A stretch of DNA of 64,000 nucleotides from an uncultured Verrucomicrobiae bacterium (lineage in GTDB: Bacteria; Verrucomicrobiota; Verrucomicrobiia; Chthoniobacterales; JAFAMB01), in contig CAWEXO010000002.1 in NCBI GenBank assembly GCA_963813025.1, positions 99,364-163,363 on the forward strand, in the 5' to 3' direction. The position numbers and the translations under genes were made by a program. Below are positions 10,635 to 36,958 of the stretch, in pieces. Each line of letters starts with the position of its first letter. The first letter of the stretch is position 1. The notes beneath the pieces are model-generated. The model was given only the letters and a program-made list of their open reading frames with translations, did not search any database and was not told the DNA's origin.

Positions 10635-10663
10635 TGAGGAAGATGCATTAATTAGCGCGACGC

Positions 10664-10818
10664 GTCCCGAGTTGCTAGTCCCTAGTCCCGAGTGGCGAGA
10701 TAAGCCCATGTGCAAGTATTACGTTCGTTGAGCAGTGAAATCACTCTGATTGCAAAAGTCGATGTTCAGCTCCGACCCGCAACCTGATTTGCCGCTCGCC
10801 ACTCGGGACTCGCCACTA
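10664..10818. repeat. Second, more degenerate 7-bp inverted-array element of the 9924 family
   Basis: GTCCCGAGTTGCTAGTCCCTAGTCCCGAGTGGCGAG ... CTCGCCACTCGGGACTCGCCACT. Confidence 0.75.
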
Positions 10819-10823
10819 ACTTC

Positions 10824-13762: not shown

Positions 13763-14023
13763 TTACTCCCCGGTCTGCAAAGCGGCGACGCGATGACCGG
13801 CATCAAGCGCTTTGCAATAACGGACGATCATCCAGAGAAGGCCGCCCAGGATGGACGCGACCATCGCCAGCATAAAAAGCACGCTCAGAGAGAACCCGGC
13901 CGAGATGCCACCGACTCCGGAAGCGCCATTGACACTGGAGGGCTCTTTGCAACCCTCGCAAGCGATCACAGACGAAGCCGATGTGAGAAAATACAAGACC
14001 GTGAATGGCAATAGACGGCCCAT
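13763..14023 (-). CDS. Small membrane protein with CxxC, last gene of the respiratory operon
   Basis: Signal-like N-terminus, ACEGCK, one further TM helix; starts 16 nt after the SCO-like stop. Confidence 0.65.
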   Translation of the reverse strand: MGRLLPFTVLYFLTSASSVIACEGCKEPSSVNGASGVGGISAGFSLSVLFMLAMVASILGGLLWMIVRYCKALDAGHRVAALQTGE

Positions 14024-14039
14024 TAGAAAAACTAATTAC

Positions 14040-14660
14040 CTACTTTTGTCCGCCACGCAAGAGGCTTCCCAGCTCAGTCAGCAGTTGCGCAACCACCTCG
14101 TCTCCGCGCCCATCGTAATTGCCGCGGACCCGGCCCTTCCCGTCAATCAGAACGAAACGCGTGAGTGCGCCGGGCGAGGAGCCAGATCGGTCATTTACCG
14201 GGTTCGCGGATAGATCGGTGATCAGCGCATCGACGCCGGCCTTCTCTCCCGTCACGAAAAGCCAGCGTGGCGAGGCTTCGAAACTTGCCCGGTATTGTCT
14301 CAGCCTGTCCAGCGCCACGCCGTTGGAATCAGACACGATCGAAACCAGCCGCAATCGAGCGCTTTTTTTGAAATTGCTGTCGAGCTCAGCAAAGCGGCCC
14401 ATGAGCAGAGCCGAGCCGGCTCGATTCTCCCACGAAACAACATTTACGACCCAGATTTTGCCGCGCATCGTACCCAGGGTTAAGCGATGGGAGTCCTGGT
14501 CAATCAGCGAGAAATCCCTCAATGGCTTGATAACTGGCAGGGAAATAGCACCGCTCTGCTCCGAAGATTTCCAGGATCGATAAGTAAAAAACGCGGCAAG
14601 AGCGAACAAGGCCGCGCCCAGCAACAGCAGTTGCTGACTTCGCTGACGCGTCGGGCTCAC
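14040..14660 (-). CDS. SCO/SenC-like thioredoxin-fold protein lacking the copper ligands
   Basis: N-terminal TM, DFSLIDQD, RGKIWVV, LVSI, WLFVTG and RFVLIDGKGRVRG match the SCO scaffold; the protein contains no Cys. Confidence 0.75.
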   Translation of the reverse strand: MSPTRQRSQQLLLLGAALFALAAFFTYRSWKSSEQSGAISLPVIKPLRDFSLIDQDSHRLTLGTMRGKIWVVNVVSWENRAGSALLMGRFAELDSNFKKSARLRLVSIVSDSNGVALDRLRQYRASFEASPRWLFVTGEKAGVDALITDLSANPVNDRSGSSPGALTRFVLIDGKGRVRGNYDGRGDEVVAQLLTELGSLLRGGQK

Positions 14661-14676
14661 GAGAGAGGCTTGAAAA

Positions 14677-14890
14677 GGCGCGTGGGCGAGACGGCGAAAA
14701 AGCGAGAGGGCGAGAGGGCCAATCGGCGAAATGGCGAATCGGCGAATGAGCGAATGGGCGAATCGGCAACTAGAGTTGGGCTTGGCATCGCCTCCAAGCT
14801 GTCTGGGTGTGCAGTTCGGATTATGTCGAGCACTCGACTAGCGTCCTTTTTATCGCCCTTTCCCCGTTCGCCCTTTGGCCCGTTCGCTCC
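14677..14890. repeat. Element bounded by inverted arrays of 8-bp repeats (GGCGAATC type)
   Basis: About 11 units GGCGAnnn at 14677-14767 and about 5 inverted units (TTCGCCC-like) at 14852-14890. Confidence 0.85.
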
Positions 14891-14893
14891 ATC

Positions 14894-15505
14894 CTACAGA
14901 ATATAAAGAATGGTAAAGAGGAATACCCAGACGATATCGACAAAGTGCCAGTAAAGTCCGGTGCATTCCAAAAAAGAGTGTCGCTCGGGGGTGATGCCGC
15001 CGGTGAAGCTCTTGAAGAGCGACGTAAGGAGGAGAATCACCCCGATGAAAACGTGCATTCCATGAAAGCCCGTCAGCACGAAGAAGCTGGAACCCATGAT
15101 CCCGGCAGTATTAAACCAGAAACCTTCGTGATGCAGATTGATCCACTCGGTCGCCTGGTTCAGCAAGAAAAGGCTTCCAAGAACGATCGTAAAAAAAAGC
15201 AGACGTTTTCCACCTTTGCGCCCTTTGATGAGTCGGCTTTCACTGAAATGCAGGGTGAAACTGCTGCTGAGCAAAAGGCAGGTCGCAATGAAAGTCTTGA
15301 TCATCGTCGGCCCGGACTTCAAAGCATCAGGCATCTGCCAACCCGTCCCGGCACCGGAGCGCAGCACGATATAGCCGCCGATCAGGCCCGCGAAAAGCAT
15401 CGCTTCGGATGCGAGAAAGGTCAGCATGCCGAAGCGCACAATATTCGGGCGCGCTCCAGGTAGAGGTTGCGCTAGTTCTTCAGCAGTGAGAGCGGGTGCG
15501 TGCAT
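14894..15505 (-). CDS. coxC: Cytochrome c oxidase subunit III, short form
   Basis: FLASEAMLFAG, LLLSSS, FFVLTGFHGMHV, YWHFVDIVWVFLF. Confidence 0.95.
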   Translation of the reverse strand: MHAPALTAEELAQPLPGARPNIVRFGMLTFLASEAMLFAGLIGGYIVLRSGAGTGWQMPDALKSGPTMIKTFIATCLLLSSSFTLHFSESRLIKGRKGGKRLLFFTIVLGSLFLLNQATEWINLHHEGFWFNTAGIMGSSFFVLTGFHGMHVFIGVILLLTSLFKSFTGGITPERHSFLECTGLYWHFVDIVWVFLFTILYIL

Positions 15506-15507
15506 AG

Positions 15508-15624
15508 TCAGGGATTATGATAGATCGAAAGTTTCCAGAGAATCACCGCGAGGGCGAGACTCACCGCAAAAACGACAATGGCGATCAGCATGCGTTGGTT
15601 CTTCTTTCGGAGTCGTTCATCCAT
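15508..15624 (-). CDS. 38-aa single-TM protein, possible small oxidase subunit
   Basis: MDERLRKKNQRMLIAIVVFAVSLALAVILWK; ATG overlaps the ctaB stop (TAATG) and the stop is 2 nt before the coxC ATG. Confidence 0.65.
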   Translation of the reverse strand: MDERLRKKNQRMLIAIVVFAVSLALAVILWKLSIYHNP

Positions 15625-16535
15625 TAGAGTCGCGTAAAAACCATTCCGGCCAAGGTGATCGGCAGATAAATAATTGAGGCCAGGAACAGGCGGCGCGCTG
15701 TGCGCTCGGTTCCGGTCCGCGCAAATCGAAAAGCCGTCCACAGAAAATAGCCTCCGGTAACCAGCGCGATTGGCAAATAAGCGACCGTAGTGAGTCGCAG
15801 GGTGACGGGGAGCAGACTGATGCAAAACAGCGCCATCGTATAGAGTAATGCCTGTCGTCCGGTGACAGAGCAATCCCCGTCCGCTCCACTCAACATGACG
15901 AATCCAGCATTCTTGTAATCTTCCCGACAAATCCACGAAATCGCGAGGAAATGTGGCATTTGCCAGAAAAACAGGATCGCGAACAATACCCAGCTCTCGA
16001 AGTTTGCTTCTCCGCGCGCGGAGGCCCAGCCAATCACCGGTGGCAACGCGCCGGGCACAGCTCCCACGATCGTGTTGAGCGTTGTTACCCGCTTCAGAGG
16101 GGTGTACGCAAAGACGTAAGTGACTACCGTAATGGCCGTCAGCATGCCGGTTAAAAGGTTTGTCGCGACGGTGAGATAGACAATACCGCAAGCCGAGAGT
16201 CCAATTCCGATGGCCAGCCCCTCATCAACGCTCATCCGCTGCGCAGGTAACGGCCGATCGCGGGTGCGGCGCATTCGGGCATCGAGATCGACCTCAAATA
16301 CTTCGTTGAGGGCAGCCGCGCCGGCCGCGGCCAGAGCGGTTCCAAACAAGGTATGAAAGAGGTACAACCAATTCATCGGCCCGTGCCAGCCGAAAAGAAA
16401 GCCGAGCAGCGTCGTAATCAAAACGAGCAAGGTTAGTCGAGCCTTGACCAGCTCTCCAAAGTCGGACAGGAGGTGCCGATGTTGGGAGGGGGGAGCCACT
16501 AAAGCAGCCGGTGTTTTATCAGAGAGGATGTTCAT
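15624..16535 (-). CDS. ctaB: Haem o synthase (protoheme IX farnesyltransferase)
   Basis: LVKARL, DARMRRTRDRPLP, YTPLKR, GAVPGALPPVIGW, WQMPHF. Confidence 0.95.
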   Translation of the reverse strand: MNILSDKTPAALVAPPSQHRHLLSDFGELVKARLTLLVLITTLLGFLFGWHGPMNWLYLFHTLFGTALAAAGAAALNEVFEVDLDARMRRTRDRPLPAQRMSVDEGLAIGIGLSACGIVYLTVATNLLTGMLTAITVVTYVFAYTPLKRVTTLNTIVGAVPGALPPVIGWASARGEANFESWVLFAILFFWQMPHFLAISWICREDYKNAGFVMLSGADGDCSVTGRQALLYTMALFCISLLPVTLRLTTVAYLPIALVTGGYFLWTAFRFARTGTERTARRLFLASIIYLPITLAGMVFTRL

Positions 16536-17578
16536 ACCCGGGCCGCCTCCTTCACGCCGAACAATCCCGGGCTCGGCCCGGCAATGCGCCTCCGTTCGAC
16601 CGCGGCCGCGAGGCAGATGCTGAGTAAAACGCCGCAAACGAGAATCAAGGAGCCGATGAAGACATGTGCAGTCGCGATATCGGCCGCCTTGTTACTGAGG
16701 ATAGTCCATGCTCCCAGCACAGCCTGCACCACGACCAATGCCGGCCAGACCAGGGCAAGTCTTCGCACGCTCACCGTCAGCCAGCTCTGGCGAAAGATGA
16801 AGGAAGCAACAACGGTAACTGCCAGGAAGATGAGCAGGGCCCAGCCCCGGTGCAGATACTGCAAATGAATCAGCCCGATGCTTGTCAGCGGCTCCGGCGG
16901 AACAGCAGCGGACCGAGCTTCATTGATCCGGGCCAGTACCCCTTGATCAGCCGGCGGAAACCATTGGCCGTATGCGGTCGGGAAATCGTGAATGGAAAGT
17001 CCGGCATGCGAATGACGCATGGCCGCTCCGAGGATGAGCTGCAGGAAAATCATCCCAGTGGTGACGATCGTCCAGAACCGGAGCCGCGACGGACCTGACC
17101 CGACGGGCGCCGCCGGTAGGCGCTCCCAGCGCGATGAAGTGACCAACGCAATGCTCCACACCAGACAAAGATAAGCCTGCGCCAGACAACCGTGGAACAG
17201 CCCTAGAACAGCGCTGTGTTCGGTGACGCGCAATCCGCCTAGCACTCCCTGAACAATGACCAAGACAAGAGCCAGCCAACAAAGAGTTTTAACCCAGCGG
17301 CGCTGTTCGAAAATGAGCGCAACGACGCAGAGCAGGATGGTCAGAACGCCGACCAGACTGGCGATCAGCCGGTGCGTGTGTTCGAACAACACGCCTCCCA
17401 CCCAACGAGAGACCGGAAACAGAAACATGTTGTAGCCGAAGCTGTTGGGCCAATCGGGGACAGACATTCCAGCCTCATGACTCGTGACCAAGCCTCCGCT
17501 ACAGATCAGAACCAGGATGCTGCCGGCGACCAGCACAGCAATACTGTTCACGATCCGTCTAGGGAAATTGGCGGGCAT
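16532..17578 (-). CDS. ctaA: Haem a synthase (COX15/CtaA)
   Basis: GGLVT...AGMSVPDWP, EHTHR, FHGCLAQ, LHR and AHV histidines. Confidence 0.9.
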   Translation of the reverse strand: MPANFPRRIVNSIAVLVAGSILVLICSGGLVTSHEAGMSVPDWPNSFGYNMFLFPVSRWVGGVLFEHTHRLIASLVGVLTILLCVVALIFEQRRWVKTLCWLALVLVIVQGVLGGLRVTEHSAVLGLFHGCLAQAYLCLVWSIALVTSSRWERLPAAPVGSGPSRLRFWTIVTTGMIFLQLILGAAMRHSHAGLSIHDFPTAYGQWFPPADQGVLARINEARSAAVPPEPLTSIGLIHLQYLHRGWALLIFLAVTVVASFIFRQSWLTVSVRRLALVWPALVVVQAVLGAWTILSNKAADIATAHVFIGSLILVCGVLLSICLAAAVERRRIAGPSPGLFGVKEAARV

Positions 17579-17596: not shown

Positions 17597-19366
17597 CTAG
17601 TGGACGGCGATCCTGGCTGTCTCAGGAGCCGGCTGATTTTGCGGTAAATAATCCTGATCCATCCCGGGAACGCTGTACTCGTAAGGCCCATTGTAGACGG
17701 TGGGTGTCTTCGCAAAATTTCCGTGGGGTGGCGGCGATGGAACAGTCCACTCCAAAGTGGTCGACTCCCAGGGGTTATTAGGCGCCTTCTCACCTCGGAA
17801 GATGCTGTAGACGAAATTGATAAAGAACGGGATCATGGACAGGCCGAGTCCAAAAGCGCTGAGCGAGATGAAGATGTTGACCGGTTGCTGGCTGCGCAGA
17901 TGGTCGTACAAGGTCGGGTCGGCGATCCGTCTCATCATTCCGTTCAGACCCAGGTTATGCATCGGGAAAAACGTGAAGTTGAAAAAGATGAACGCGAGAA
18001 AGAAGTGCACCTTGCCCCAAAACTCGTTCATCATGCGACCAAACATCTTTGGATACCAAAAGTAGATCGCGCCAAAGATGCCAAAGAGACTGCCACCAAA
18101 GAGCACGTAGTGGATATGGGCGACGATAAAATAGGTGTGATGGATGAAAAGATCGACCGGCGTGGCGGCCATGTAGATTCCGCTTAAGCCGCCGATCACA
18201 AACATCGAGACAAACGCCAGCGCGAAACACATCGGCGTCTTAAAACGGATTGAGCCGCCCCAGACTGTCCCCATCCAATTGAAAGTCTTGATAGCGGAAG
18301 GAACCGCAATGAGCATCGTCGAAAACGAAAAGGTGGCCGAGAGCACCAGGTTCATTCCGCTCACAAACATGTGGTGTCCCCATACGATGAATCCCAGCAC
18401 ACCGATCGCGACCAACGCCCCAACCATTGCTTTGTAACCAAAGATCGGTTTGCGCGAGAAGACCGCCAGCACCTCCGACACCAAGCCCATAGCCGGGAGG
18501 ATCATGATGTAGACCTCCGGGTGTCCAAAGAACCAGAAAAGATGCTGCCAGAGAAGCGGCTGGCCATAATTGGAGGCGGAGAAAAAGTTAGTGCCGAAAT
18601 TCAGGTCAAAAAATAACATCGCGGCGGCGGCCGATAACACTGGAACCGCTAGAAGCAGGAGAAACGCAGTCACGAGCAGCGACCAGACCGGGAGCGGCAA
18701 GCGAAACATTTTCATCCCCGGTGCGCGCATATTGATCACTGTGGTGATAAAGTTGGCGGCGCCCGCAATCGACGCCAATCCATTGATAAAAAGGCCAACA
18801 CACCAGCAACTCTGGCCAATCTGGGTTCCGTTGTAGGCGGCATTAGCCGAGAGCGGAGCGTACGAGGTCCATCCAGAAGCCGGAAATCCGGTCGGAGCAA
18901 AAAAGCTCCCAAGGAGCACGATTCCCGAGAGGAAAAACAGCCAAACCGAAAGCGCGTTGAAAAACGGAAATGCCATATCGGGCGCCCCGATTTGCAGGGG
19001 AATCAAGAAATTGCCAAACACCCCGATCAAGAGCGGCATCACGACCAGGAACACCATCACGGTCGCGTGCATGGTGAAGAGAGCATTGTAACCACCCGGA
19101 GAAAAAGCGCCCGTGTCCGTCACCAACCATTTGGGCAGAAACTGACCGATCAGCGGGACCGGAGTACCGGGAAAAGCCAGTTGAAAGCGAACCCCCATCG
19201 CCAACAAGCCGCCCACCGCCATGAAAAACAAGCTAAAACACAGGTACTGGATGGCGATGGTTTTATGGTCCAACGACCAGATATATTTTTGAAAAAAACT
19301 GAGCTCGTGGTGAGGGTGTTCGTGTTCCTGAATCTCGCCGACTGGATGAGCGATTGTCTGCGCCAT
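17597..19366 (-). CDS. coxA: Cytochrome c oxidase subunit I, A1 type
   Basis: DHK (D-channel), MHAT, WFFGHPEVY, WGHHMF, AIKTFNW (K-channel), AHIHY; all six His ligands present. Confidence 0.97.
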   Translation of the reverse strand: MAQTIAHPVGEIQEHEHPHHELSFFQKYIWSLDHKTIAIQYLCFSLFFMAVGGLLAMGVRFQLAFPGTPVPLIGQFLPKWLVTDTGAFSPGGYNALFTMHATVMVFLVVMPLLIGVFGNFLIPLQIGAPDMAFPFFNALSVWLFFLSGIVLLGSFFAPTGFPASGWTSYAPLSANAAYNGTQIGQSCWCVGLFINGLASIAGAANFITTVINMRAPGMKMFRLPLPVWSLLVTAFLLLLAVPVLSAAAAMLFFDLNFGTNFFSASNYGQPLLWQHLFWFFGHPEVYIMILPAMGLVSEVLAVFSRKPIFGYKAMVGALVAIGVLGFIVWGHHMFVSGMNLVLSATFSFSTMLIAVPSAIKTFNWMGTVWGGSIRFKTPMCFALAFVSMFVIGGLSGIYMAATPVDLFIHHTYFIVAHIHYVLFGGSLFGIFGAIYFWYPKMFGRMMNEFWGKVHFFLAFIFFNFTFFPMHNLGLNGMMRRIADPTLYDHLRSQQPVNIFISLSAFGLGLSMIPFFINFVYSIFRGEKAPNNPWESTTLEWTVPSPPPHGNFAKTPTVYNGPYEYSVPGMDQDYLPQNQPAPETARIAVH

Positions 19367-19374
19367 AAAAGTTG

Positions 19375-20247
19375 TTACTCGTTCTTGGCTAAAGCCTTTT
19401 CGGGAGTTTTTTGCGGAACTGCAGCGTCCGCCTTTTCCTTGTACCACTTGTCGAAATCGGCCTGGGAAACAACCTCGATTTGCGCCTTCATATTGTAGTG
19501 CCCCTGGCCGCAAAGCTGACTGCAGGCCAACTGGAAAGAGCCCACTTGGGTAGGGATGAACCAGACCCAATCAATTGTTCGCCCTGGGACAGCGTCCTGG
19601 TAAATCCGGAATTGCGGTATGTAAAAACCGTGAATCACATCTTTCGAATTGAGCCGGACTCGCACCGGTTTATTGACAGGCAACTCAAGGACGCCGGATT
19701 CAAAGTTATCTTTGGTGGCGGGATCATTTCTATCATTGCCGAAAGGATTATCGTTCGAAATCAGGTTTACATCGGAACGCCCGAGATGGCCGTCGCGCCC
19801 CGGGTACTGCATGCTAAAACCGAACTGGTAGGAGGTAACGGCCACCTCCATCGAATCGCTTGGTGGAGTCGCATGGATGACATTCCACCACATATGATTG
19901 CTGTAGCCCCAGAGACCGATAAAGATCGCGGTTGGAATCGCCGTCCAGACGATCTCCAGAAGGTTGTTGCCGTGGCTGTACTTGGCGCGAACGCCTTTCC
20001 GCGAGCGGTACTTGATCAGAAAATAGACGTAAACAACCTGAGTCAGGACAAAAACCGCGCCCGTCAGGTAGAAAATGATCCAGATCAGGAAATCAATTTC
20101 CCGACCGCCCTTGCTCGCCACATCCGGCATCCACCAGAGACCAGAAGTGCGCGGTTCCGCCGACGCCGCAGCCGCGGTTGCCAGCAAGACGAAAAACGGA
20201 AAGAAGCGTCGTACAATTCGTGGTCGCAGAAAAATCATACCGGTCAA
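19375..20247 (-). CDS. coxB: Cytochrome c oxidase subunit II (CuA), no fused cytochrome c
   Basis: LEIVWTAIP, DVIHGF, CSQLCGQGHYNM; no CxxCH. Confidence 0.95.
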   Translation of the reverse strand: MTGMIFLRPRIVRRFFPFFVLLATAAAASAEPRTSGLWWMPDVASKGGREIDFLIWIIFYLTGAVFVLTQVVYVYFLIKYRSRKGVRAKYSHGNNLLEIVWTAIPTAIFIGLWGYSNHMWWNVIHATPPSDSMEVAVTSYQFGFSMQYPGRDGHLGRSDVNLISNDNPFGNDRNDPATKDNFESGVLELPVNKPVRVRLNSKDVIHGFYIPQFRIYQDAVPGRTIDWVWFIPTQVGSFQLACSQLCGQGHYNMKAQIEVVSQADFDKWYKEKADAAVPQKTPEKALAKNE

Positions 20248-20277: not shown

Positions 20278-21093
20278 TCATGAGTGCCCCGGGGTGGCCG
20301 CGGCAGGCGGCGCAGAGGTCGCTGGAGGATTTCCAGGCGTTGGCGCCGGCGGCTTGCCGCCGTTGGCCGAGGGAGCGGACGCCGGTTGGCCGGGTGGCGG
20401 CGGTTTCGCGGCAGTTTTGGTCAGATCCATCGGCGGAAGCTTCATCAATTCCGGGTAGGTCCATTGTTCCTTACGATCCTTCAGCTGATCCCGCATGTGC
20501 TTGACCATGTCTGCCGTGATCGGGGGCGCGTTGTTGCCCCATTCCGAGCGGACGTAAGTAAGAATCGATGCTAACTGCTGATCCGTGTACTGACCTTCCC
20601 AAGCCTGCATTGCGTTATTGAAGGTTTGGCCTTTGACCTGTACCGATCCCTGTAACCCCTTCAGCACGATCCCGATCAGCCGGTTGCTGGCTTCGCCGTT
20701 GACGAATTCTGAACCGGCTAACGGTGGATATTGCCCGGGAATTCCTAATCCAGTGGCTTGATGGCAGGTGATACAGTTCGCGGAAAAAAGGGCTTTCCCG
20801 ACTGCTCGCGGATCCGCCGGGGCGGCCGCCCCTCCCGCTTGAGCGCCAAACTTCGGCTGATAATCAAATACGTCGGCCGCAAATCCTCCGCTGAAGGAAA
20901 ACAGATAAGCGCCTGCCCAGAAGAGTCCGAGCAGCAGCAGGCCGAGCAGCCACTTTGGGACCGGAGCGTCCGCCACGGCCGGCATTGAAAACTCGGTCTC
21001 AAGCGCGTTTTGCTCTTGCTGCGCCGAGTCCGACTCAGGCCCGGCTGATCCGGCGGCGGACGGTTGTTCTGGATCGGTAAAAGATGCACTCAT
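20278..21093 (-). CDS. Membrane-anchored monohaem cytochrome c with a Pro/Ala-rich tail
   Basis: TM WLLGLLLLGLFW, CITCH, YPPLAGS, Met ligand in NNAM. Confidence 0.9.
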   Translation of the reverse strand: MSASFTDPEQPSAAGSAGPESDSAQQEQNALETEFSMPAVADAPVPKWLLGLLLLGLFWAGAYLFSFSGGFAADVFDYQPKFGAQAGGAAAPADPRAVGKALFSANCITCHQATGLGIPGQYPPLAGSEFVNGEASNRLIGIVLKGLQGSVQVKGQTFNNAMQAWEGQYTDQQLASILTYVRSEWGNNAPPITADMVKHMRDQLKDRKEQWTYPELMKLPPMDLTKTAAKPPPPGQPASAPSANGGKPPAPTPGNPPATSAPPAAATPGHS

Positions 21094-21713
21094 TCTTTCG
21101 GTTCAGGGGCCTCCGGCAACGGGTAGTCGCGCTTCAGCGATAGCAGATAGCCCACTAATTCGCGGGCTTGCCGGGTTGGAACGATCTCGTAGCCGGGCGG
21201 AGGCGCGTCCGATCCCTGCAGGTGCAGCGCATCCGCCGAAACCTGGCCAACGATCTTCCGCTCAGCGAAGAGCCAGGGATAAGCCGGCATGTTCGCTTCG
21301 GGGTTCATCTGCCTGGGATCAAACAACAAACGGTAAAACCATTGGGCATCGGTCTGACGCACGCCGACGTTGGTCAGATCCGGTCCTTGTCGCGAATCAC
21401 CAAGAAAAACTTGCCCGTCAAAAAGGTAATCGCGCGCGACTGTCCGCCGGTTACCCCATTTGCGTTCGATGTCGCTGCCTTCATTCTTGTCGCGAACAAA
21501 TTGGGTGTGGCAATTCACACAGCCATTTCCGGCGTACACGTGGTAGCCTTGAGCGGCCGTTCCGGGAATGCCCGGCGGAGCGATTGCCCCGGTGTTCTCG
21601 TCTTTGTGCGGCTGCAATGCCGCAAAGGTCAGGTAAGGATAAGCGACAAGGCCTAGCCAGGAGGCCCCAAACACCCCGAAAACGCCCAGGAAAAATGTAC
21701 TGAATCGGTTCAC
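21090..21713 (-). CDS. ccoO: cbb3-type subunit II-like monohaem cytochrome c (CcoO/FixO-like)
   Basis: GCVNCHTQFVR, GDSRQGPDLTNVG, ANMPAYPWLF. Confidence 0.85.
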   Translation of the reverse strand: MNRFSTFFLGVFGVFGASWLGLVAYPYLTFAALQPHKDENTGAIAPPGIPGTAAQGYHVYAGNGCVNCHTQFVRDKNEGSDIERKWGNRRTVARDYLFDGQVFLGDSRQGPDLTNVGVRQTDAQWFYRLLFDPRQMNPEANMPAYPWLFAERKIVGQVSADALHLQGSDAPPPGYEIVPTRQARELVGYLLSLKRDYPLPEAPEPKE

Positions 21714-23206
21714 GCGACGCCAACCTCCTGAGAGAGCGGTTCCGGTGCAGGCTCGCTTGGCTCCGCCTCGGCCGACACCGGTTCAACCAGAGGAATCGCC
21801 GGACCAAGCAGGATAATCAGGAATGACCAGATCGCGATCGCATTGGCCGCTAAGAGCACAAGCACGGCGACAAAGCGGAAAAGATAGAATGGGCCGGCCA
21901 GATCCGTTATCGCGTTGAATTCTATTTTTGCGTCGTTAAGGCCGAAGCCCTGGATTACGCCTCCCATAAAAGTGCTGACCGCTAAAAGCCCAAGTCCAAC
22001 GACAGTTAACCAGAAGTGAAACTGAATAGCGGCGCGGGAAAGCCACTTTCGCAGAAGTAGTCGCGGAACGATATAATAGATTGCTCCAAAGAGCGTCAGT
22101 CCGACAAAGCCAAAGATCGTTAGCAGCATCGGCAGCGATCCCGCCATCGTGAACTCCGTTACGCGATTGATCGTGCGGAACGCGGTGATCGCCTCCCACA
22201 CCCCGGTCGCCGTATAAATCATTGTTCCAATGACAATAAATCGAAGAACCAGGTTCCAGCTGAGTGCCTCGAAGTGATCGCCCAAAGTGCTGTGAAAATT
22301 CGCGGCGACGGCGGCGATCGGCAACACCATCAGCACCGTTGACACAATGCCGGAGGTCATCATCCAGGCCGGAAGCGGACCGGCCAGAATGTTCGTCATG
22401 CCGGTCCAACCACCCAAGATTGCCAAACCCCAGAAGCTGTTCAGCGCTAGTCGATAGCTGTGCAGCGGACGCCCAACCAGCTTCGGCAGAAAGTAAAACG
22501 CGATTCCGAGAGCGACCGGAGTCAGCCACAGATCTCGCACCACATTGACGTACCACCAGTGAATAGCGGGCTGGGCAACTCCCGATGCCTGGGATACGTT
22601 CAGCAGCAGATTGCCGGTGAGATACGCCCAGGAAAACCAGAAGAACGCCGCCACGAGGTACCAATGCGCGATGTACGTATTCCTCCGCCGCCAGTAAAGT
22701 CGCAGGACCCAGAGACTCATGATCGCCAGCGCAAGAAAAATGCTGAACCCGGCATAAGGATTAATATCGAGCAGCAGCCGACCCCTTCCGCCACCCGACA
22801 ACAGGCTGATCAAGCCGCAAAACAAACCCAGATTCCAAATCAATCCGGCATAGATCGGCAGCGGACCGGCAGGTTCCACTGAAGTACTGAGACGTCCAAG
22901 AATCCAGACGGCGGCGCCGATCCCGGCCATGGAGCACCAGCCGTAAACCAGCAGGTTGAGGGCGGCCGGATATGCACGACCGAAGGTAAGCCAAGGGACC
23001 TGGCTACCTGTCCACCAGGCATGGGGCGCGAATTGCTGCGCACTAGCGACTAAAAGAAGAAGGGAAGCGAGGAGCAACCAACCTAGCGCAGACCCGAAAA
23101 AGATCAGAACAGGCGTGCGCACCGGCCGGTCAAAGTCAGACGTCCGTGGCGGCAGTGTGGTATCGCGGTTTAAAGGCTCGGCATTCAGGATGGCGGGGCT
23201 GCTCAT
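21710..23206 (-). CDS. cbb3-type subunit I homologue (CcoN-like) lacking all haem and CuB ligands
   Basis: CcoN scaffold motifs WLTFGR, WWY, YFLPKLVGRPLHSYRL, LPAW, YYIVPRL and HFWL are retained; the ligand His positions are substituted. Confidence 0.85.
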   Translation of the reverse strand: MSSPAILNAEPLNRDTTLPPRTSDFDRPVRTPVLIFFGSALGWLLLASLLLLVASAQQFAPHAWWTGSQVPWLTFGRAYPAALNLLVYGWCSMAGIGAAVWILGRLSTSVEPAGPLPIYAGLIWNLGLFCGLISLLSGGGRGRLLLDINPYAGFSIFLALAIMSLWVLRLYWRRRNTYIAHWYLVAAFFWFSWAYLTGNLLLNVSQASGVAQPAIHWWYVNVVRDLWLTPVALGIAFYFLPKLVGRPLHSYRLALNSFWGLAILGGWTGMTNILAGPLPAWMMTSGIVSTVLMVLPIAAVAANFHSTLGDHFEALSWNLVLRFIVIGTMIYTATGVWEAITAFRTINRVTEFTMAGSLPMLLTIFGFVGLTLFGAIYYIVPRLLLRKWLSRAAIQFHFWLTVVGLGLLAVSTFMGGVIQGFGLNDAKIEFNAITDLAGPFYLFRFVAVLVLLAANAIAIWSFLIILLGPAIPLVEPVSAEAEPSEPAPEPLSQEVGVA

Positions 23207-23220: not shown

Positions 23221-23649
23221 TCAGGAGTGATTCGGGGATGAGCCACCCGCAGGCGCGGGTGAGCCACCGACTGCCGCCGCGGGTGCTGGGCTCTTTGCCG
23301 GACTACTGGCCGGCGATGGACTTGGCGCCGGCGCGGTGACTGGACCGGCCGAATGCGGGTGATTGCTCTGCAAATCGGTGAGTTCCAGTCCCATGGCCCG
23401 ATCAATCGGGATTCCCACGACTCCGTTCTTGCGATCGATCCAATGATAGCTCGTGAAAATTTTCTGATTTTCGGCGTTCAGGTCTGCCAGATTTTTCAAG
23501 CGCTGTTCCGTGCGCAATTCGTCGTAGCTCTTGATTCCGCCCCGCCGCGAGACGATCACAAAGAGCAAGCCGCCAATAAGACACACCAGGATAAGGCTCC
23601 CGACAACGCTGAGAAACGTTGGACGTCCGTTTTGTGAATTTCCGTTCAT
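23221..23649 (-). CDS. ACIII-associated small membrane protein (ActG-like)
   Basis: One TM helix and YHWIDRKNGVVGIPIDRAM; directly after actF. Confidence 0.6.
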   Translation of the reverse strand: MNGNSQNGRPTFLSVVGSLILVCLIGGLLFVIVSRRGGIKSYDELRTEQRLKNLADLNAENQKIFTSYHWIDRKNGVVGIPIDRAMGLELTDLQSNHPHSAGPVTAPAPSPSPASSPAKSPAPAAAVGGSPAPAGGSSPNHS

Positions 23650-23656: not shown

Positions 23657-24901
23657 CTAACCAGTACCCTCGTTCGATAGCCGAACACTCTCGAGCAGAC
23701 GCGGATCTCTGGCCGGAAACAGGTTCACTGAGCCAAGGGACCGCAAAAACAGGAACGCAAGCAGGCAGCCAATCGCCAGCAGGCTGAGTAGATCGAGAAT
23801 GCTGAACTGAAAGCCGGCCGGATGCAGGAAAGGCGAGACACTGACGTATGTGTCGATCATGTGCATTCCCAGTATCCAGTAGCACATAAGGCTGAGCAGG
23901 TGCGGGTTGCGCTTGGTGAACTCGAAAAGCAAGTACAGGAACGGGATAAAGAATCGCCCCACCACCATGATCGTACTCAGAACGTGCCACGACTCGATAT
24001 TGCGACGCAGGAACCATTCCGTCTCTTCCGGAATATTCCCGTACCAGATCAGCATGTATTGAGCAAAACCGATGTAGGCCCAGAAAATCGTGAAAGTCAA
24101 AAGCAGCTTACCCATGATCTGGTAATGCTCTGCGTTGACCCCAGCCAGGTAACCCGCGTTCTTCAGCCCGTAAACTACCAGGACGATTAAGGCCATCCCC
24201 GCTCCCGCTGATCCCGCAAAGATGTAGACACCCCACATCGTGGAAGCCCAGCGATAGTCAGGGGAAGAAACCCAGTCAAACGCGGCCAGGGTTGTGAAAA
24301 CCGCGAACAGGACAATACAAACGAACGACACTCCACGCATTTGAATTGACCAGTGCGGATCGCCATCGGAATCCTGGCGAACGGAGGTTCGCCGAAAATA
24401 AACGGCCACGCCTCCGAAAAACAGGAAATAGAGGACTGCCCGAATCCAGAAGAAGGGCACAGTCAAACCATCGAAATGCAGCACGAAGTAGCCGAGCTTG
24501 GCCTTCAGAGGCGGATCGATCGGAACATGGTGGCTTGCCGCAATCCAATTCCAGATGTCCTGACGAGCCAGGAAAAGCGGTATGAAGAACAAGATCATCC
24601 AGCGAAGCAACGCCGCCAGGTTTTCCATTTGCCGCCGTACCAGGATTCCCCAACCCGAATCAGTGGAATGATGAACAATGATCCAAAAGAAGCATCCGAT
24701 CAGAATCGTGAAAAAGTAGACGAATGCGAAAAGCCATGAAAACGCGAACTGACGCCGAGTTTCGCTGCCGGCCGGCGCAAGAAAGCCAGTCAGCAATGTC
24801 ACTGTCGCGCAGAAAATGCCGGCCCCAAGCAGGACCAACAGAAGCCGGCTGAGATTGGTGCCACGGAAGGTTTCGGCCGTTGGAACTAAATTATGGTTCA
24901 T
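23657..24901 (-). CDS. actF: Alternative complex III subunit ActF
   Basis: Polytopic; FDWVSS...WASTMWG, GKLLLTFTIFWAYIGFAQYMLIWYGNIPEE. Confidence 0.9.
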   Translation of the reverse strand: MNHNLVPTAETFRGTNLSRLLLVLLGAGIFCATVTLLTGFLAPAGSETRRQFAFSWLFAFVYFFTILIGCFFWIIVHHSTDSGWGILVRRQMENLAALLRWMILFFIPLFLARQDIWNWIAASHHVPIDPPLKAKLGYFVLHFDGLTVPFFWIRAVLYFLFFGGVAVYFRRTSVRQDSDGDPHWSIQMRGVSFVCIVLFAVFTTLAAFDWVSSPDYRWASTMWGVYIFAGSAGAGMALIVLVVYGLKNAGYLAGVNAEHYQIMGKLLLTFTIFWAYIGFAQYMLIWYGNIPEETEWFLRRNIESWHVLSTIMVVGRFFIPFLYLLFEFTKRNPHLLSLMCYWILGMHMIDTYVSVSPFLHPAGFQFSILDLLSLLAIGCLLAFLFLRSLGSVNLFPARDPRLLESVRLSNEGTG

Positions 24902-25584
24902 TTCTGGTTCTCGAGCGCCGGACGCAGGTTTGGTGGCACATCCGCAATCCTGGCGTACTGGCTTCGTTGCAGCGCTCGGATGTATGCGACGATCGCCCAT
25001 CGATCCTTCACCGTGACCTTGTCGCCATACGGCATCATCGTGTTATAACCGTGCGTGATCGTATTGAAAATCTGTCCGTCCGCCATTTGCCGGTATTTGT
25101 CCTGATGATAATTGGCGATGCCGTTCAGGCCATATTTGGAGGTAATGCCGTTTCCTTGCCCGGTAGCACCGTGACAGACCGCGCAGTTGATCGTGAATAC
25201 CTCCTGACCTCGCTGCAACAATGCCGCCGTAATGGGTAGCGGCAGACCCGTACCCCAGTTGTTACCCATTTTTCCAGTGTTATAGTAGTCAGTACCAGCC
25301 GTGAATTCGCCGATGGGTGACATGATATCATTGGGCGGATTGGAGTTTTGGGTCGGGTGGTCGGGAATGTCGTAACCAAGCGGAATCGTACCATCAACGG
25401 GAGGGCGAGCGGCCCGCCCGTCTGCGAAAAAAAGACTCGGCTTTTGGTACTTGATCTTGGACTGGCGTTTCATGTCACCGAAGAACTCGATCGGGGGCGT
25501 CGGGCGATGTTGTCCCTGAAAACCGAGCAGCGCCACGGACACCGCGCAAAGCAGCAGGAAACCGATCAAAAAATTCTTAATCAT
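24898..25584 (-). CDS. actE: Alternative complex III monohaem subunit ActE
   Basis: DMKRQSK, FFADGRAARPPVDGT, CAVCH, MMPYG, DRWAIVAYIRALQ. Confidence 0.9.
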   Translation of the reverse strand: MIKNFLIGFLLLCAVSVALLGFQGQHRPTPPIEFFGDMKRQSKIKYQKPSLFFADGRAARPPVDGTIPLGYDIPDHPTQNSNPPNDIMSPIGEFTAGTDYYNTGKMGNNWGTGLPLPITAALLQRGQEVFTINCAVCHGATGQGNGITSKYGLNGIANYHQDKYRQMADGQIFNTITHGYNTMMPYGDKVTVKDRWAIVAYIRALQRSQYARIADVPPNLRPALENQK

Positions 25585-26137
25585 TTTCGTGGAGCACCGT
25601 CACCTCTTTGCCGCCGATGCCCGCCAGGAACTCGCCGGTTTCGCTCTCGCGAAACTTTGGATCGATCGCATCGATCACGAGGAAGAAACCATCATCGGTC
25701 ACGCGTTTGAAAGGTGCGTGATCAAAGAGCGGATGATGCAAACGAGGCAAGCGATTCATCACGAAGACACCGAAAAAAGCGGTGAAAGCAGAAAACAGAA
25801 TCGTCAATTCGAACATGATCGGAAAAAACGCCGGCACGGTGAAAAAGTTTACCGGCTTTCCATGCACGATCAGCGGATTTAGGAAGGACGAAGGGATGAA
25901 TTCGAGGAGGGCCGCAGTCAGAAAACCGGTTAAGCCGCCAACAAAGATAATATAGCCCAAGGGTGATCTTTTAAGCCCCATCGCCTTGCTCATTCCGTGG
26001 ATTGGAAAGGGAGAATGAACGTCCCAGTATTTGTATCCACTGTCGCGCACCTGCTCGGCCGCACGATAGATCTCGGCCGCGGAGGCAAATTCCGCGACCA
26101 GGCCAAAGACTAGGGGTCGGGTAGCTATCGGGCTCAT
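25577..26137 (-). CDS. actD: Alternative complex III subunit ActD (DUF3341)
   Basis: [29 protein letters not shown] overlaps the actC stop. Confidence 0.9.
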
Positions 26138-27565
26138 GCTTCGGCTTGCTGGATCGTCTCGGGAACTCCGGTCGACGGAGGATGATAGTGCGGGTTGGCG
26201 ACCGGCAGGACACTTTTTACCTCGGACATCGCGACCATCGGGAGAAAACGAATGAACAGGAGGAAAAGACTGATAAAAATGCCGTGGGTACCAACGAAAG
26301 TAAAAACGTCCACCCAGGTCGGGTAATACATCCCCCAACTGGAGGGCAGGAAATCGCGGGTCAATGAGACCGCTATGATCACGAATCGCTCAAACCACAT
26401 TCCGGCGTTCACGCACATGCACACAAAGTAGACTGTCCAAACATTTCGCCGGAAAGCCCTTACCCAGAACAATTGGGGGATGATCACGTTGCAGGTGAAC
26501 ATTGACCACCCAGCCCACCAGTAAGGCCCGAAGTAGCGATTTAAAAAGATGAATCGCTCAAAGGGATTGGCGCCGTAATAGGCGACAAAAAACTCCATGC
26601 AATACGAGTACCCGACGATCGAGCCGGTCAGCAGGATGATCTTGCACATCACGTCGATGTGATTCCAGGTAAAGACGTCCTGCAGGCCGTAGAGGTACCG
26701 CGCCGGGATCATCAGGGTCAGGACCATGGCGAATCCACCGAAGATCGCGCCCGCCACGAAGTAGGGCGGGAAGATCGTCGTATGCCAGCCCGGGATCAGC
26801 GAGGTCGCAAAATCAAAGGACACGGTTGAGTGCACGGAAAGGACCAGCGGAGTGGAGATCCCGGCCAGAACGAGATACGCCATCTCGTAATGCCGCCACT
26901 GCCGATTTCCTCCGCGCCATCCGAGCGCCAGAACGCCGTAGACGAATTTGTTAAACCGGCTGCGAGCGCGATCGCGCATCGTGCCCAGATCCGGAACCAA
27001 GCCCAGAAACCAGAACAATACCGACACCGTAAAGTAAGTCGAGACCGCGAAAACGTCCCAGAGCAGCGGGCTCCGGAAGTTAGGCCAGATCCAGTTCGGC
27101 ACCGGCACTGGCGCCATGAACCAAACCATCCAGATGCGGCCAACGTGAATCGCCGGAAAGATTCCGGCGCAGATCACGGCAAACAAGCGTCATCGCTTCG
27201 GAGGATCGGTTGATCGAAGTCCGCCATTTCTGGCGTGTGAGAAAAAGGATCGCCGAGATCAGCGTACCGGCGTGGCCGATACCGATCCAGAAAACGAAGT
27301 TAGTGATATCCCACGCCCAACCAATCGGGATGTTGTTACCCCAGACACCTACACCGGTCCAAAGCAGGTAAATGATACAGAAAACACCGAAGCCGGCGAA
27401 GGATCCGGTGACCGCTATAGCAATCCACCACCAAAGAGGCGTTTTCCGTTCAACCCCTCCGGCGATCAGATTGGTCACCCAATGCATCGAGCGATTGTTC
27501 TCCACCAGCGGCGGTCGAGGCATCCGCTCGATGAACGGCGTCATTGTGGCATTGGATTCAGCCAT
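26134..27565 (-). CDS. actC: Alternative complex III subunit ActC (NrfD/PsrC family), split by a +1 frameshift near 27186
   Basis: [23 protein letters not shown]...EAMT in one frame continues as [17 protein letters not shown]...[10 protein letters not shown]...VLSVHS in another frame. Confidence 0.9.
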
Positions 27566-30500
27566 CAGGCGTTACCTCCGACGGGCTTGTTTTCGGCCTG
27601 CGATACTGGGGCCGGGACCTCGCTGACTTCAGGTTTGGTGTTTATTCGGCCAACCTTTGCGGCGCCAGGCATTTTCGGGTTTGGGTTTCGCAGCCGAGCC
27701 AGGTAGGTCGTCCGGGTGTTCAGGTTCAGGTACTTCAGCAGCTGGTAATTCTGAGGGAGGGCGCGCAGATGCGAAACGTGACTCGCCGGATCCTTAATAT
27801 CGCCAAAGACGATCGCCTCGTTCGGACAGACCTGTTGGCAAGCCGTCCTGATCGAGTCCGTGGGAAGCGACAAATCTTTTTCCACGCCCGCTTTGATCCG
27901 TTGGGAGATTTTTGCCGTCTCAATCCGCTGCACACAGTAGGTGCATTTTTCCATGACCCCGCGCATGCGAACCGTCACGTTCGGATTTTTCTGCAGCTTG
28001 GAAATTTCGTCCATTCCCCAATGGGCCAGCGGTCCGAGGTAAAGCTGTTGCTTTCCCTGGAAACCGGGTGCGCCGTGCTCGATCCGGTCAAGCACAGGGC
28101 GATCGTTGTAATTGAAGAAATTGAATCGGCGAACCTTAAACGGGCAATTGTTTGAGCAATAGCGAGTTCCGATACATCGGTTATAGACCATCACGTTCAA
28201 GCCTTCCTCGCTATGAACCGTGGCGTTCACCGGACAGACCGTTTCACAGGGAGCATTCTCGCAGTGCTGGCACATCAAGGGCTCCATCACCATAGCGGGA
28301 TCAGCCGCCAGATCCGGGCTTTTCCGGTCTCCCTCCGCAGTGGCAAAATAGCGGTCAACTCGGATCCATTGCATTTCCCGGAACGAATCGACCTGATCTT
28401 TGCCGACCACCGGCACATTGTTCTCGGCCTGGCAGGCGATCACGCAGGCTGAACAACCGGTGCACGTGTTCAAATCAACCACCATTGCCCATTGATTAGG
28501 CGCGTTCAGCGGCGGATGCGAGTAGAGCGAGACATTCGGCGGGATTTCTGCATCCATGCCCATCGTTTGGGCGAAGGCCGGATTTTTCGCGTAATCTTCC
28601 ACCGTGCCTTCGCGCACCAGGTTGCGGCCCTCCATGCTGTAGTGCAGTTGTGTTTGAACCAAATGATAGCCGTTCTTCCGTTGTAAACGGACCACCGCTC
28701 CGGTCGCGTAGTAGAGTGAGTCGGAAGTTCGCAGATCATAGGCGTTGAAACCGGTGTCGCGTCCGACCTTCCCAACAGCTCTCCGCCCATAGCCGAGACT
28801 GAGCGTGAGCGAATAATCCGCATGACCTGGCGCAACCATGATGGCGGCCAGCAATTTGCGATTTCCCACGCTGACCTCCACTAGATCGTTGTCGACGATC
28901 TGAAGAGCAGCCGACGTCGCCGGACTGATCAGCAGAGCGTTGTCCCAGGTCAGCTTGGTTATCGGATCAGGCATTTCCTGCAGCCAGGCGTTGTTGGTGT
29001 GGCGACCGTCCTCCACCTTGTAATCGGCTGGGAAAACAATCTCCAGAGCGCTCGGATTGGGCGGCGGAGGAGGATTGCCGGCCTGCGCAATCAACCTCGG
29101 CAAACCCTCGGGATTAAAGCCCCGGCTGGCAACCTGGTAGGAACTGTCGGGGGCAAAACCGTGCCGAAGCAGCGCGGTCCACCCGGTCTCGAAATCGGTC
29201 TCACGGTTGTAAGTCTTGAAGGTCTCGCGAACCGCTTCGCTGCCGTCAGGCACGCCCAGAAGACGGGTCAGGAGGTCTATCTGCGAAAGCCCGCCAAACA
29301 ACGGCAGGATCATGGGCTGAATCGGCAAATACGTGCCGTCAGTGCCGCGCTGGTCGCCCCACGATTCCAGAAAATGGGCCTCCGGCACATTCCAGTGTGC
29401 GCTTTCGGAAGTTTCGTTATCGTAGTAGCTCAAGCAGACAACTTCGGGAACCGAACGTTGGAGAGTTGTCCAATCCACATCCGCCGGAGCCGTGTAGCCC
29501 GGATTACCGGCCAGGATAAACAGGCGCTTAACTTTGCCTGCCTGGATGGCGCCGGCCAGATCGGATAAGCGACCGGCAGAAACGCGTGGCGCTTGCCAAA
29601 CACGCAGTGTCGACCCGAAGGCCTCCAGCGCATTGTTCATTGTCAGGACAACGCCCTGGACCCACGCGGGATAACGTTGCCCCAAGAGCACGATGCTACG
29701 GCTTTTGTGCGCCACCAAGTCGTTGGCGCATTCCATCAGCCACTTGTCATCGAACTGCGCCTGGCCGTCTCTCGCGAGCCGGGCAGCCAGTTCACCTAAA
29801 ACCCGATCGTTGGTCGCCCTAGCAACCTTTTGCGCCAGGGCGACGGCAAAGGCCGGGATCTGGGAGGCAGCGCAACGCAATCGATGATCGGCCATGCCGC
29901 CAGTGACCGTGTACCGGTTTTCTACGGCATACAGTCGAATCATGTTTTCGGCCGAGCCGTGGGCGCGCCGGCGCGCGCTGAAATTCCGAGCGCCATCAAC
30001 CGTCATTTCCACTCCCAAAAAATCCGCGTCCAGTGAGACAACGACGTCGGCATTTGCGAAATCCGGCCTCACAATGGAATCCGCTCCAAGCAATGCTTCC
30101 GTGGCACCGTAAACCTCTTGGAGCCCGAGTGGCTCGTCGACAAAAAAGGCGATTTGCGGAAACTGCCGCTTCAGCGCGCTCAGCAGGCGGTCGCGGGTTG
30201 GTGACCACTGCTCATCAAGCAGGATGGCGAGACCGGCTCCTTGACTGGTCTGGATTTCCGTGCGGACCGACTGCAAGTATTTCTCAAATTGTTCCGCAGT
30301 CGCTTCCTCGCCTCCCTGGTAAAACGCGCGCGACCGTTCCGGATCGTACAGCTCAAGAATCGCTGCCTGAGTGAGGGCGTCCGTCCCTCCACTGCTCGAC
30401 GGAAGCAAAGGATTGCCTTCGATTTTGGTCGGTCGGCCCTCGTACGTGGTTATAATGAGAGGAGTTCCACCTTGCCGGCCGGGAATAGCAGTGGTGTACA

Positions 30501-30789
30501 GGACCGCTTTGCCGGGAATCAACCATTCCACGCTCTTGGTGTAGGGAACGATATAGGTGGTTGGCCGGCGGCAACCCGAGAGACCGACTCCCGCCAAGGC
30601 CAGCGAAGCACCCATCACGCGAAGAAAATTCCGGCGAGAGACTCCATCCATCTCCAGCTGATCCGCTCCATCAGGAAACTCGCGCCTTAACCAGGACCGG
30701 AACGCCGGCGTATCGGCGAGTTCTTCCAGACTGCGCCAGTATTTTTTCCCGGTGAGTTCCTCAGGTGGATGATGAAAGATGCGTTTCAT
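27565..30789 (-). CDS. actB: Alternative complex III subunit ActB (molybdopterin-oxidoreductase-like plus Fe-S domain)
   Basis: YWRSLEEL, Tat/lipoprotein SRRNFL...[46 protein letters not shown]...ACQQVCP. Confidence 0.95.
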
Positions 30790-35719: not shown

Positions 35720-35743
35720 CGCGAAATACGGGTCTCTCCTCGC

Positions 35744-36787: not shown

Positions 36788-36911
36788 AAAACAGCTACTG
36801 GCCAGAATAGAGAATATTTGCGGCGGGGACAAGGTCGAGAGCGCAGTAGCGCGGACGGGCTTCGTCCGTATCTTCCGGTGAGTGGTTCTGTCAGCATTCC
36901 TCGGCAGGCAT

Positions 36912-36958
36912 GCGCTCCGCGCAGTCTTAAAGCGGCGACAAGTCGCGCGCACTCCAAA
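36912..36958. repeat. Single arm of the GGAGTGC REP family
   Basis: GCGCTCCGCGC...AAAGCGGCGACAAGTCGCGCGCACTCCAAA, near-identical to the arms at 44471 and 48497. Confidence 0.8.

Follow-up and report, generated by a model that had tools for sequence, protein, structure and literature searches.

Two kinds of described system come close to the locus reported here. One is the cbb3 oxidase, for which the CcoN subunit of Pseudomonas stutzeri (3MK7) served as the structural reference, and the other is the pairing of alternative complex III (ACIII) with an A-type oxidase, as in the ACIII-caa3 system of Rhodothermus marinus and the ACIII-aa3 system of Flavobacterium johnsoniae, where the ACIII operon is followed by the oxidase genes. 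According to PMC5928083, the step from ActE to CuA uses one added cytochrome c domain, which belongs to subunit II in Rhodothermus and to ActA in Flavobacterium. Adjacent genes for ACIII and a C-type oxidase in verrucomicrobial methanotrophs and Opitutaceae have already been published (PMC8498564, citing Refojo 2010), and in PMC8498564 and PMC6688271 this cluster, which is the same as the one described here, is counted as a working high-affinity oxidase. We analysed a stretch of 64,000 nucleotides (the window) from an uncultured Verrucomicrobiae bacterium (contig CAWEXO010000002.1, positions 99,364 to 163,363), in which an ACIII operon carries a gene that JGI, NCBI and UniRef list as cbb3 subunit I. 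The gene product, designated CcoN* here, shares with the P. stutzeri system the fold, the family PF00115, the gene order ccoN-ccoO-cytochrome and a CcoO with CXXCH and Met but, unlike CcoN of P. stutzeri, it lacks the six His, the Tyr and proton-channel residues, and the equivalent of CcoP is monohaem. The genes of this module are:

21710..23206, minus strand: ccoN*, 498 amino acids, cofactor-less homologue of cbb3 subunit I (PF00115, 136 bits; TIGR00780, 123.8 bits)
22961-22963 (A82), 22544-22546 (N221), 22412-22414 (G265), 22391-22396 (T271, N272) and 22124-22132 (P359, L361): codons at the ligand positions within ccoN*
21090..21713, minus strand: ccoO, monohaem cytochrome c of 207 amino acids (PF02433; CVNCH and M142)
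20278..21093, minus strand: CcoP-like monohaem cytochrome c of 271 amino acids (PF00034; FixP_N with an E-value of 0.0013, under the cut-off)

The ligand register was determined against CcoN of P. stutzeri (3mk7_A), and the alignment contained no gap at any ligand motif. Both His ligands of haem b are gone (H60 is A82 in RAYPAALN, H347 is L361), the haem b3 ligand H345 is P359 and the CuB ligands H207, H257 and H258 are N221 (WWYVNV), T271 and N272 (GGWTGMTN). Likewise, the cross-link Tyr of helix VII (Y251) is G265, and in the last ligand register YTDWTIGHVH of 3mk7_A is FTMAGSLPML in CcoN*. The nearest His to any of the seven sites is more than four residues off (H216, at five residues, is not conserved in relatives), and this, together with the gapless register, rules out that ligand His residues are present at shifted positions. 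The orthologue in genome G346, which is 87% identical, has the identical seven residues. The open reading frame (ORF) of ccoN* runs over 498 codons without stops and its stop overlaps the start of ccoO (GTGA), just as the stop of ccoO overlaps the start of the cytochrome c gene (ATGA). An earlier note on this DNA, made from the letters alone, had described an intact CcoN ORF of this length coupled to ccoO, with every metal ligand and the cross-link Tyr replaced, and had proposed an alignment as a check for shifted His; both descriptions hold, and the alignment revealed no shifted His.

Apart from the ligands, T215, Y223, S240 and H243 of 3MK7, which we take to be the K-type proton channel residues, were compared. 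T215 is unchanged (T229), while the equivalents of Y223, S240 and H243 are F237, A254 and S257; intact ACIII-linked members likewise lack His at the H243 site, where they have Gly. The score of CcoN* with TIGR00780 falls far below the cut-off of 583.15 bits, as do the intact ACIII-linked members (206-273 bits). The fold is kept: an AlphaFold2 model of CcoN* reached a predicted local distance difference test (pLDDT) value of 91 and a predicted template modelling (TM) score (pTM) of 0.91, and the first seven matches in a Foldseek search were all cbb3 CcoN structures (3mk7_A: TM 0.84/0.89, root mean square deviation 1.8 Å). Nitric oxide reductase (NOR) structures scored below CcoN, and the six His of NorB that bind haem b, haem b3 and FeB are all missing from CcoN*. 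Of the features of a C-family subunit I, CcoN* thus has the fold and the sequence family and lacks all the His, the Tyr and the TIGR00780 score. From the ligand loss we infer that CcoN* cannot form a working cbb3 core and that O2 reduction is excluded, which bears out the view of the earlier note that the module is not a working cbb3 oxidase.

Matches to the CcoN family were found in 139 of 151 sampled genomes of the order and in most aerobic families of the class. A total of 209 loci were aligned, among them 15 canonical CcoNO fusions and four other intact paralogues (L075, L082, L083 and L101) that were used as controls outside the family counts; all 19 read HHYHHHH at the seven sites. The family proper, an ACIII-linked module of CcoN, CcoO and a monohaem cytochrome c, comprises 190 loci from 186 Verrucomicrobiia genomes. 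ORFs of less than 380 amino acids were dropped (a split copy in G063), and a locus was called dead if it kept three or fewer of the seven ligand residues. All seven are kept in 65 loci, six in four loci (one of which is merely cut short) and three or fewer in 121, where 60 loci keep none, 44 one, 15 two and 2 three residues. By these counts, working and emptied copies exist side by side in the family, so that the consistent loss of His that the earlier note looked for stands for 121 of the 190 loci but not family-wide, since 65 are fully intact. The replacement residues vary among lineages. Of the best 150 representatives of clusters formed at 50% identity, 139 were readable at every site; four of these are intact and 132 keep two residues or fewer, and each ligand site is retained in 1-29 of the 135 non-intact representatives. 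Early steps are present in living genomes, with H207 replaced by R in two f8 genomes and H257 by Q in one f6 genome. A further early step is seen in 9 of 14 loci of family f14 (e.g. L073 and L143), where only the two low-spin haem b ligands are retained (pattern HNxQRYH); one such protein carries a name from Ca. Udaeobacter. Searches of 16 f1, 15 f13 and 15 f14 genomes gave neither a canonical nor an intact CcoN. Family f27 was considered as a methanotroph family and this was ruled out, since the records were Opitutae-type. Burkholderiales (Ottowia and Alicycliphilus, cluster P0239) have an intact relative of the subfamily that is extended at its N-terminus, and the parent subfamily thus reaches beyond Verrucomicrobia.

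Dead ccoN genes have open frames of nearly full length (median 491 amino acids) in lineages that are only 21-50% identical, and the second copy in G063 was the one split copy seen. The ratio of non-synonymous to synonymous substitution rates (dN/dS) was determined with the method of Nei and Gojobori (NG86) on sister pairs, and only those with dS between 0.05 and 1.5 were used, which removed 8 of 42 dead and 6 of 18 intact pairs (the intact set includes two pairs of other paralogues). Dead ccoN had a median dN/dS of 0.12 (range 0.056-0.40, 34 usable pairs), compared with 0.119 for ccoO and 0.103 for actF in the same set; the value for the CcoP-like cytochrome was about 0.10, and the gene of the window gave 0.113 against G346. 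The check on homologues proposed in the earlier note thus came out as purifying selection, and CcoN* has two marks of a pseudoenzyme, an enzyme fold without its catalytic residues and maintenance by purifying selection. A sequencing error or a pseudogene is ruled out by the residues of G346, the similar loss in 121 loci, the open frames and the dN/dS values. The equivalents of R57, N208, T215, S240 and H337, presumably involved in haem binding and the proton channel of 3MK7, vary little or not at all among the 65 intact loci and are kept in at most 37% of the 121 dead ones, whereas packing Trp, Pro and Gly residues are retained. Judged by this pattern, the residues lost from dead copies are those that serve cofactors.

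The number of losses depended on the tree. Trees built from neighbouring ACIII subunits require 12 changes of the dead state, and 11 of these are forced by well-supported branches (41 hand-picked rows); the larger ACIII subunit tree (110 rows) gave 14 changes, and 15 separate losses without regain were counted with 121 rows, with CcoO included and any lost ligand counted. CcoN's own tree, calculated without the ligand columns, gave five changes (bootstrap 4-5), three of them forced. An initial FastTree of CcoN, on which dead copies were drawn to the base, was not used for counts. A single clade or origin of all dead copies was rejected on the CcoN tree by the approximately unbiased (AU) test (p-AU 0.00085; 40 hand-picked rows, ligand columns dropped). 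An honest range for the number of losses, as estimated from these trees, therefore lies between 3-5 and about 15. Emptied proteins that converged, long-branch attraction or the replacement of genes inside operons may account for the gap between the CcoN tree and the ACIII trees. In either case, the tree reconstructions show the dead copies to be products of a repeated degeneration of an intact ACIII-cbb3 ancestor.

Next to the emptied subunit, the two cytochromes behave differently from each other. CcoO of the window, encoded next to ccoN* like the monohaem partner in cbb3 complexes, has CVNCH at residues 65-69 and M142, and its CXXCH is kept in 117 of 117 dead loci. A loop of CcoO that reads GTMRTGPD in intact relatives and GSKRTGPD in Pseudomonas, and which we take to be turned towards the haem b and Ca2+ site in CcoN, reads GDSRQGPD in the window. 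This loop is 96-99% conserved beside intact CcoN, whereas its three variable sites are kept in 14%, 10% and 3% of cases beside dead CcoN, and loss of the loop coincides with ligand loss in CcoN in all nine independent pairs examined (p 0.004 in a sign test). In three lineages (L076, L103 and L197, plus 11 more loci), all with dead CcoN, the axial Met of CcoO has become Cys, a replacement that requires a change at all three codon positions and that was found in none of 67 intact or near-intact loci. The CcoP-like cytochrome has one transmembrane helix (about residues 46-68), a linker of about 45 residues, a haem site (CITCH 107-111, M162) and a Pro/Ala-rich tail, and wherever a dead locus has a residue at the Met position (112 loci), that residue is Met. 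It is not a dihaem CcoP, having one CXXCH and a TIGR00782 score of 37.5 compared with the required 180 bits; the cytochrome of intact relatives is monohaem too. Taken at face value, these changes mean that the electron path into CcoN is dismantled from both sides and that the haem of CcoO is free to change while that of the tethered cytochrome is not. The CcoP-like cytochrome is the likely electron shuttle.

The module is part of a single same-strand run that comprises actA-B-C-D-E-F, an actG-like gene, ccoN*, ccoO, the monohaem cytochrome c gene, coxB, coxA, ctaA, ctaB, coxC and sco. The remaining genes of the run are:

30790..31440, minus strand: actA, pentahaem cytochrome of 216 amino acids without an additional monohaem domain
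27565..30789, minus strand: actB, 1074 amino acids
26134..27565, minus strand: actC, split in the window by one additional base near 27187
25577..26137, minus strand: actD (PF11821, 195.6 bits)
24898..25584, minus strand: actE, monohaem cytochrome c, exit haem of ACIII
23657..24901, minus strand: actF, 414 amino acids, named by its operon position, without a family match
23221..23649, minus strand: actG-like gene for a single-transmembrane protein, 14-nucleotide gap to ccoN* downstream
19375..20247, minus strand: coxB, CuA motif, TIGR02866 over the cut-off, without a fused cytochrome c
17597..19366, minus strand: coxA, A-family subunit I
13763..17578, minus strand: ctaA (haem A synthase), ctaB (haem O synthase), coxC, an SCO-like gene and a gene for a conserved small protein of 86 amino acids

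With actA to actF present in order, the run contains a complete ACIII gene cluster, and motif reading confirmed what the earlier note had stated of its other parts, namely that CcoO and the next cytochrome c have intact haem sites and that CoxB has no fused cytochrome c. Across the family, act genes lie upstream in 115 of the 121 dead loci, and the remaining six are cut by locus or contig ends. ActD was not found in 13 of the 151 genomes of the order; seven of these have no CcoN family member, one has canonical CcoN only and five have an intact copy. A dead copy without ACIII was never seen in this sample. These last five all belong to genus g24 (L036, L116, L127, L132 and L134), and two further g24 genomes carry ACIII and a dead copy. 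In genus g68 (G164, G211, G226 and others), eight genomes have a weak ActD-like match only (E-values of 1e-12 to 1e-19) and no CcoN family match. The oxidase genes are less constant: among dead loci with at least 4 kb of downstream DNA, 28 of 92 have no downstream cox gene, including all of the Opitutales-type families f18, f19 and f27, and in non-dead loci with enough downstream DNA cox genes follow in 10 of 27. By gene order, the fixed genomic partner of CcoN* is thus ACIII and not the aa3 oxidase. In L080:11843-15500 and in L211, dead ccoN, ccoO, the cytochrome gene, ctaA, ctaB and sco are kept, coxB-coxA are gone and a CuA oxidase is encoded elsewhere in the genome. An additional monohaem cytochrome gene lies between actF and dead ccoN in L070:10363-11202 and L103:10511-11317, and in L074:11200-17560 about 6 kb of other genes separate actF from the actG-like gene.

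A CuA motif was found in all 95 genomes of the order with a dead copy, and a CoxB match in all 17 genomes of the class with a dead copy; the 6 of 41 class genomes without CoxB all carry intact copies, and altogether nine genomes with intact copies lack the CuA motif or the CoxB match. CoxB of the ccoN-type operons has CuA and no fused haem in 74 of 74 cases. The source genome has a second, ordinary ACIII operon (G000:C13:549372-561998) in which actA-G lie directly before a caa3-type CoxB with a fused haem c, and this operon contains no ccoNO. A complex prediction of ActC with CcoN* of G346 scored 0.01, compared with a mark of 0.32, which counts neither for nor against a contact.

We propose that CcoN*, kept by purifying selection, serves as a cofactor-free membrane scaffold that holds CcoO and the CcoP-like cytochrome at ACIII, and that this cytochrome relays electrons to CuA of an A-type oxidase, a reading to which we give a somewhat better than even chance; in it, the binding to ACIII, the direction of the electrons and the acceptor are what we infer. 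In the ancestor, ActE would have delivered electrons to cytochrome c, from where they would have gone through CcoO to haem b and on to O2. Once a CuA oxidase could accept the electrons, the O2-reducing centre would have become dispensable, the anchor itself would not have been deletable, and the tethered cytochrome would then have taken the place of the fused cytochrome c domain in ACIII-caa3 systems. Electrons would now run from ACIII via the CcoP-like cytochrome to a CuA oxidase that is either neighbouring or encoded elsewhere, and CcoO would be mainly structural, its haem being a side branch or a first relay step. Since CoxB is without haem in all 74 operons and ActA of the window has only five haems, a slot is open that the CcoP-like cytochrome fits; in contrast to the Rhodothermus and Flavobacterium systems, where the added domain is part of CoxB or ActA, a separate protein would supply the cytochrome. 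A more far-reaching version, for which the chances seem to us slightly less than even, assumes up to about fifteen conversions of an oxidase core into an obligate, cofactor-free subunit of an ACIII supercomplex, with a tethered shuttle to CuA, a structural CcoO (convergent His/Cys ligation), and Methylacidiphilum and most Udaeobacter-type soil bacteria without a working cbb3 oxidase.

Several points weigh against the scaffold and relay proposed here. Its support comes from sequence, a structural model and gene order. ActE of Rhodothermus can, according to PMC5928083, reduce caa3 directly, and an additional shuttle is perhaps unneeded. Downstream coxBA genes are present in only 64 of the 92 dead loci, and co-occurrence with CuA oxidases is weak evidence, since these are found in 144 of 151 genomes of the order and kin are not independent. 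Five fragmented genomes of the order and one of the class have ActD yet no CcoN family match. Among 117 dead loci, CcoO has Cys in place of its axial Met in 14 and Lys or His in one each, and this speaks against an obligatory role for CcoO as a high-potential relay. Two proteins in which a dead CcoN is fused in frame to a haem-binding CcoO (P0274 and P0323, 706 and 667 amino acids) count in favour of the scaffold, but both are single-member clusters on contigs of 3-4 kb and possibly assembly errors. Finally, selection is weaker than on intact ccoN (median dN/dS 0.12 vs 0.068 in 12 of 18 intact pairs), and dN relative to CcoO is 1.22 in dead vs 0.67 in intact ccoN; on these values, selection on dead ccoN is relaxed yet still clearly purifying. 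Relaxed selection and long branches would also be expected of a slowly decaying relic that is shielded only by its operon position, but dN/dS does not exceed 0.40 in any of the 34 usable pairs and near-full-length frames persist in divergent lineages, so that this idea is largely refuted already and hardly credible.

The earlier note had placed a fixed wire in the window, from ActA/ActE over CcoO and cytochrome c to CuA within a dedicated ACIII-CcoN*-aa3 supercomplex encoded by one operon. The unbroken same-strand run from actA to coxC, which many relatives share with the window, the two complete haem motifs and a CoxB without haem speak for it; the position behind ACIII stands, but the missing cox genes in 28 of the 92 dead loci with enough downstream DNA do not agree with a dedicated aa3 partner, and CcoO, though it has its haem motif here, is a doubtful element of a wire, since its loop decays with the ligands and its Met is lost in some lineages. 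We therefore regard the fixed wire as quite unlikely. Unlikely, though less so, is a structural entrenchment, in which CcoN*, CcoO and the cytochrome are needed for assembly or stability of ACIII, electrons leave via ActE and the haems of the module serve folding only. The absence of dead copies without ACIII, the seven genomes in which both are missing together, the loss of the haem-b-facing CcoO loop in all nine independent pairs and the threefold origin of Cys in place of Met agree with this; a His/Cys-ligated haem would, as is established for other His/Cys cytochromes, be too low in potential to relay. It does not explain why the CcoP-like cytochrome retains CXXCH and Met in 112 of 112 dead loci at a dN/dS of about 0.10 or why the operon CoxB never has its own haem c, and an ACIII operon free of the module exists in the same genome. 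That the emptied 12-helix barrel has gained a new activity (passage of ions or small molecules, sensing or lipid binding), or stores electrons on a single haem b in some lineages, is very unlikely: exactly the two low-spin haem b ligands are retained in 9 of 14 f14 loci and several sites have acquired matching new residues in different dead lineages (e.g. S240 to A in 81%), but dead lineages share no new polar residue, replacements are lineage-specific, the other five f14 members lose the haem b His too and the f14 CcoO loop has already decayed.

With or without the relay, which is plausible, the CcoN* module is, on the genomic evidence, real, widespread, conserved and mis-annotated, a pseudoenzyme version of a known respiratory module. 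Cases of enzyme-derived folds retained without a cofactor are known from ACIII itself, namely ActF as a paralogue of ActC and domain B1 of ActB, which carries no prosthetic groups according to PMC5928083. CcoN* differs from these in being an emptied terminal-oxidase core whose loss is recent, repeated and ongoing, with intact and half-lost relatives alive. The intact, one-ligand-lost, haem-b-only and fully emptied versions, with the matching changes in the partners, form a natural series from enzyme to scaffold; if the proposal is true, CcoN* is a pseudoenzyme of haem-copper oxidase subunit I with living intermediates for each step, and it predicts a third way of linking ACIII to an oxidase.

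The label as high-affinity oxidase, which the earlier note had expected to mislead, is indeed found in databases and papers. The ‘cbb3’ gene has been invoked for the growth of verrucomicrobial methanotrophs at low oxygen (PMC6688271, PMC8498564 and PMC10205796); PMC6688271 ties the ACIII-adjacent ‘cbb3’ to high O2 affinity and PMC10205796 lists cbb3 as one of three oxidases. For M. caldifontis IT6, bioRxiv 2024.01.15.574570 reports no induction of the ‘cbb3’ genes under anoxic conditions. These papers regard the gene product as a functional cbb3. The supplements of PMC6688271 contained no match for cbb3. In our alignment, the proteins of M. fumariolicum (CCG92522.1), M. kamchatkense (QDQ41613.1), M. 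caldifontis (TFE71122.1) and O. terrae (ACB77202.1) keep one of the seven ligand residues, and named proteins of Terrimicrobium sacchariphilum, Phragmitibacter flavus and a Ca. Udaeobacter are dead copies; the protein of Nibricoccus aquaticus (ATC62872.1) is intact. A search of three Methylacidiphilum-type genomes of 99% completeness gave no other CcoN (best TIGR00780 score 28.5 bits). Many Verrucomicrobia credited with a cbb3 oxidase therefore likely have no working one, as far as ligand residues tell, and the microaerobic capacity that has been deduced for abundant Verrucomicrobia of soil and fresh water should be checked again. A description of the ligand loss was not found in a full-text literature search, which left most subscription journals outside its coverage, so that an earlier remark is possible.

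Some further features of the operon and the genome were noted. The additional base in actC of the window (27185-27188) was judged against G346, L078 and the other actC copy of the genome, and a near-identical contig of run X1 reads through actC without it; the split is therefore probably an assembly error. In the source genome, actF on C13 and coxA on C14 are split likewise. The actG-like protein had no match in Pfam, NCBIfam or PDB, and its name is based on its position and on weak similarity to the product of the correspondingly placed gene in the second ACIII operon. No ccoQ or ccoGHIS was recognised in the operon, and no other ccoN or ccoO was found in the source genome (assembly 80% complete). 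A promoter and terminator scan of the operon gave signals no better than shuffled sequence, and an Rfam search gave no match. Outside the operon, ORFs of 739 (50592-52811, plus strand) and 416 amino acids (6852-8102, minus strand) had no Pfam match at an E-value of 0.001, and two adjoining, similar ORFs of 185 and 176 amino acids (10158-11354, minus strand) resemble secreted proteins or lipoproteins and are without a Pfam match. An orphan actC-actD pair lies at G000:C8:249182-251166 with no other act gene near; the two genes are 88% and 75% identical to the copies of the window. A type III polyketide synthase-like gene, followed by an ORF for an acyl carrier protein-like protein of 87 amino acids, is located at 35456-37042 on the minus strand of the window.

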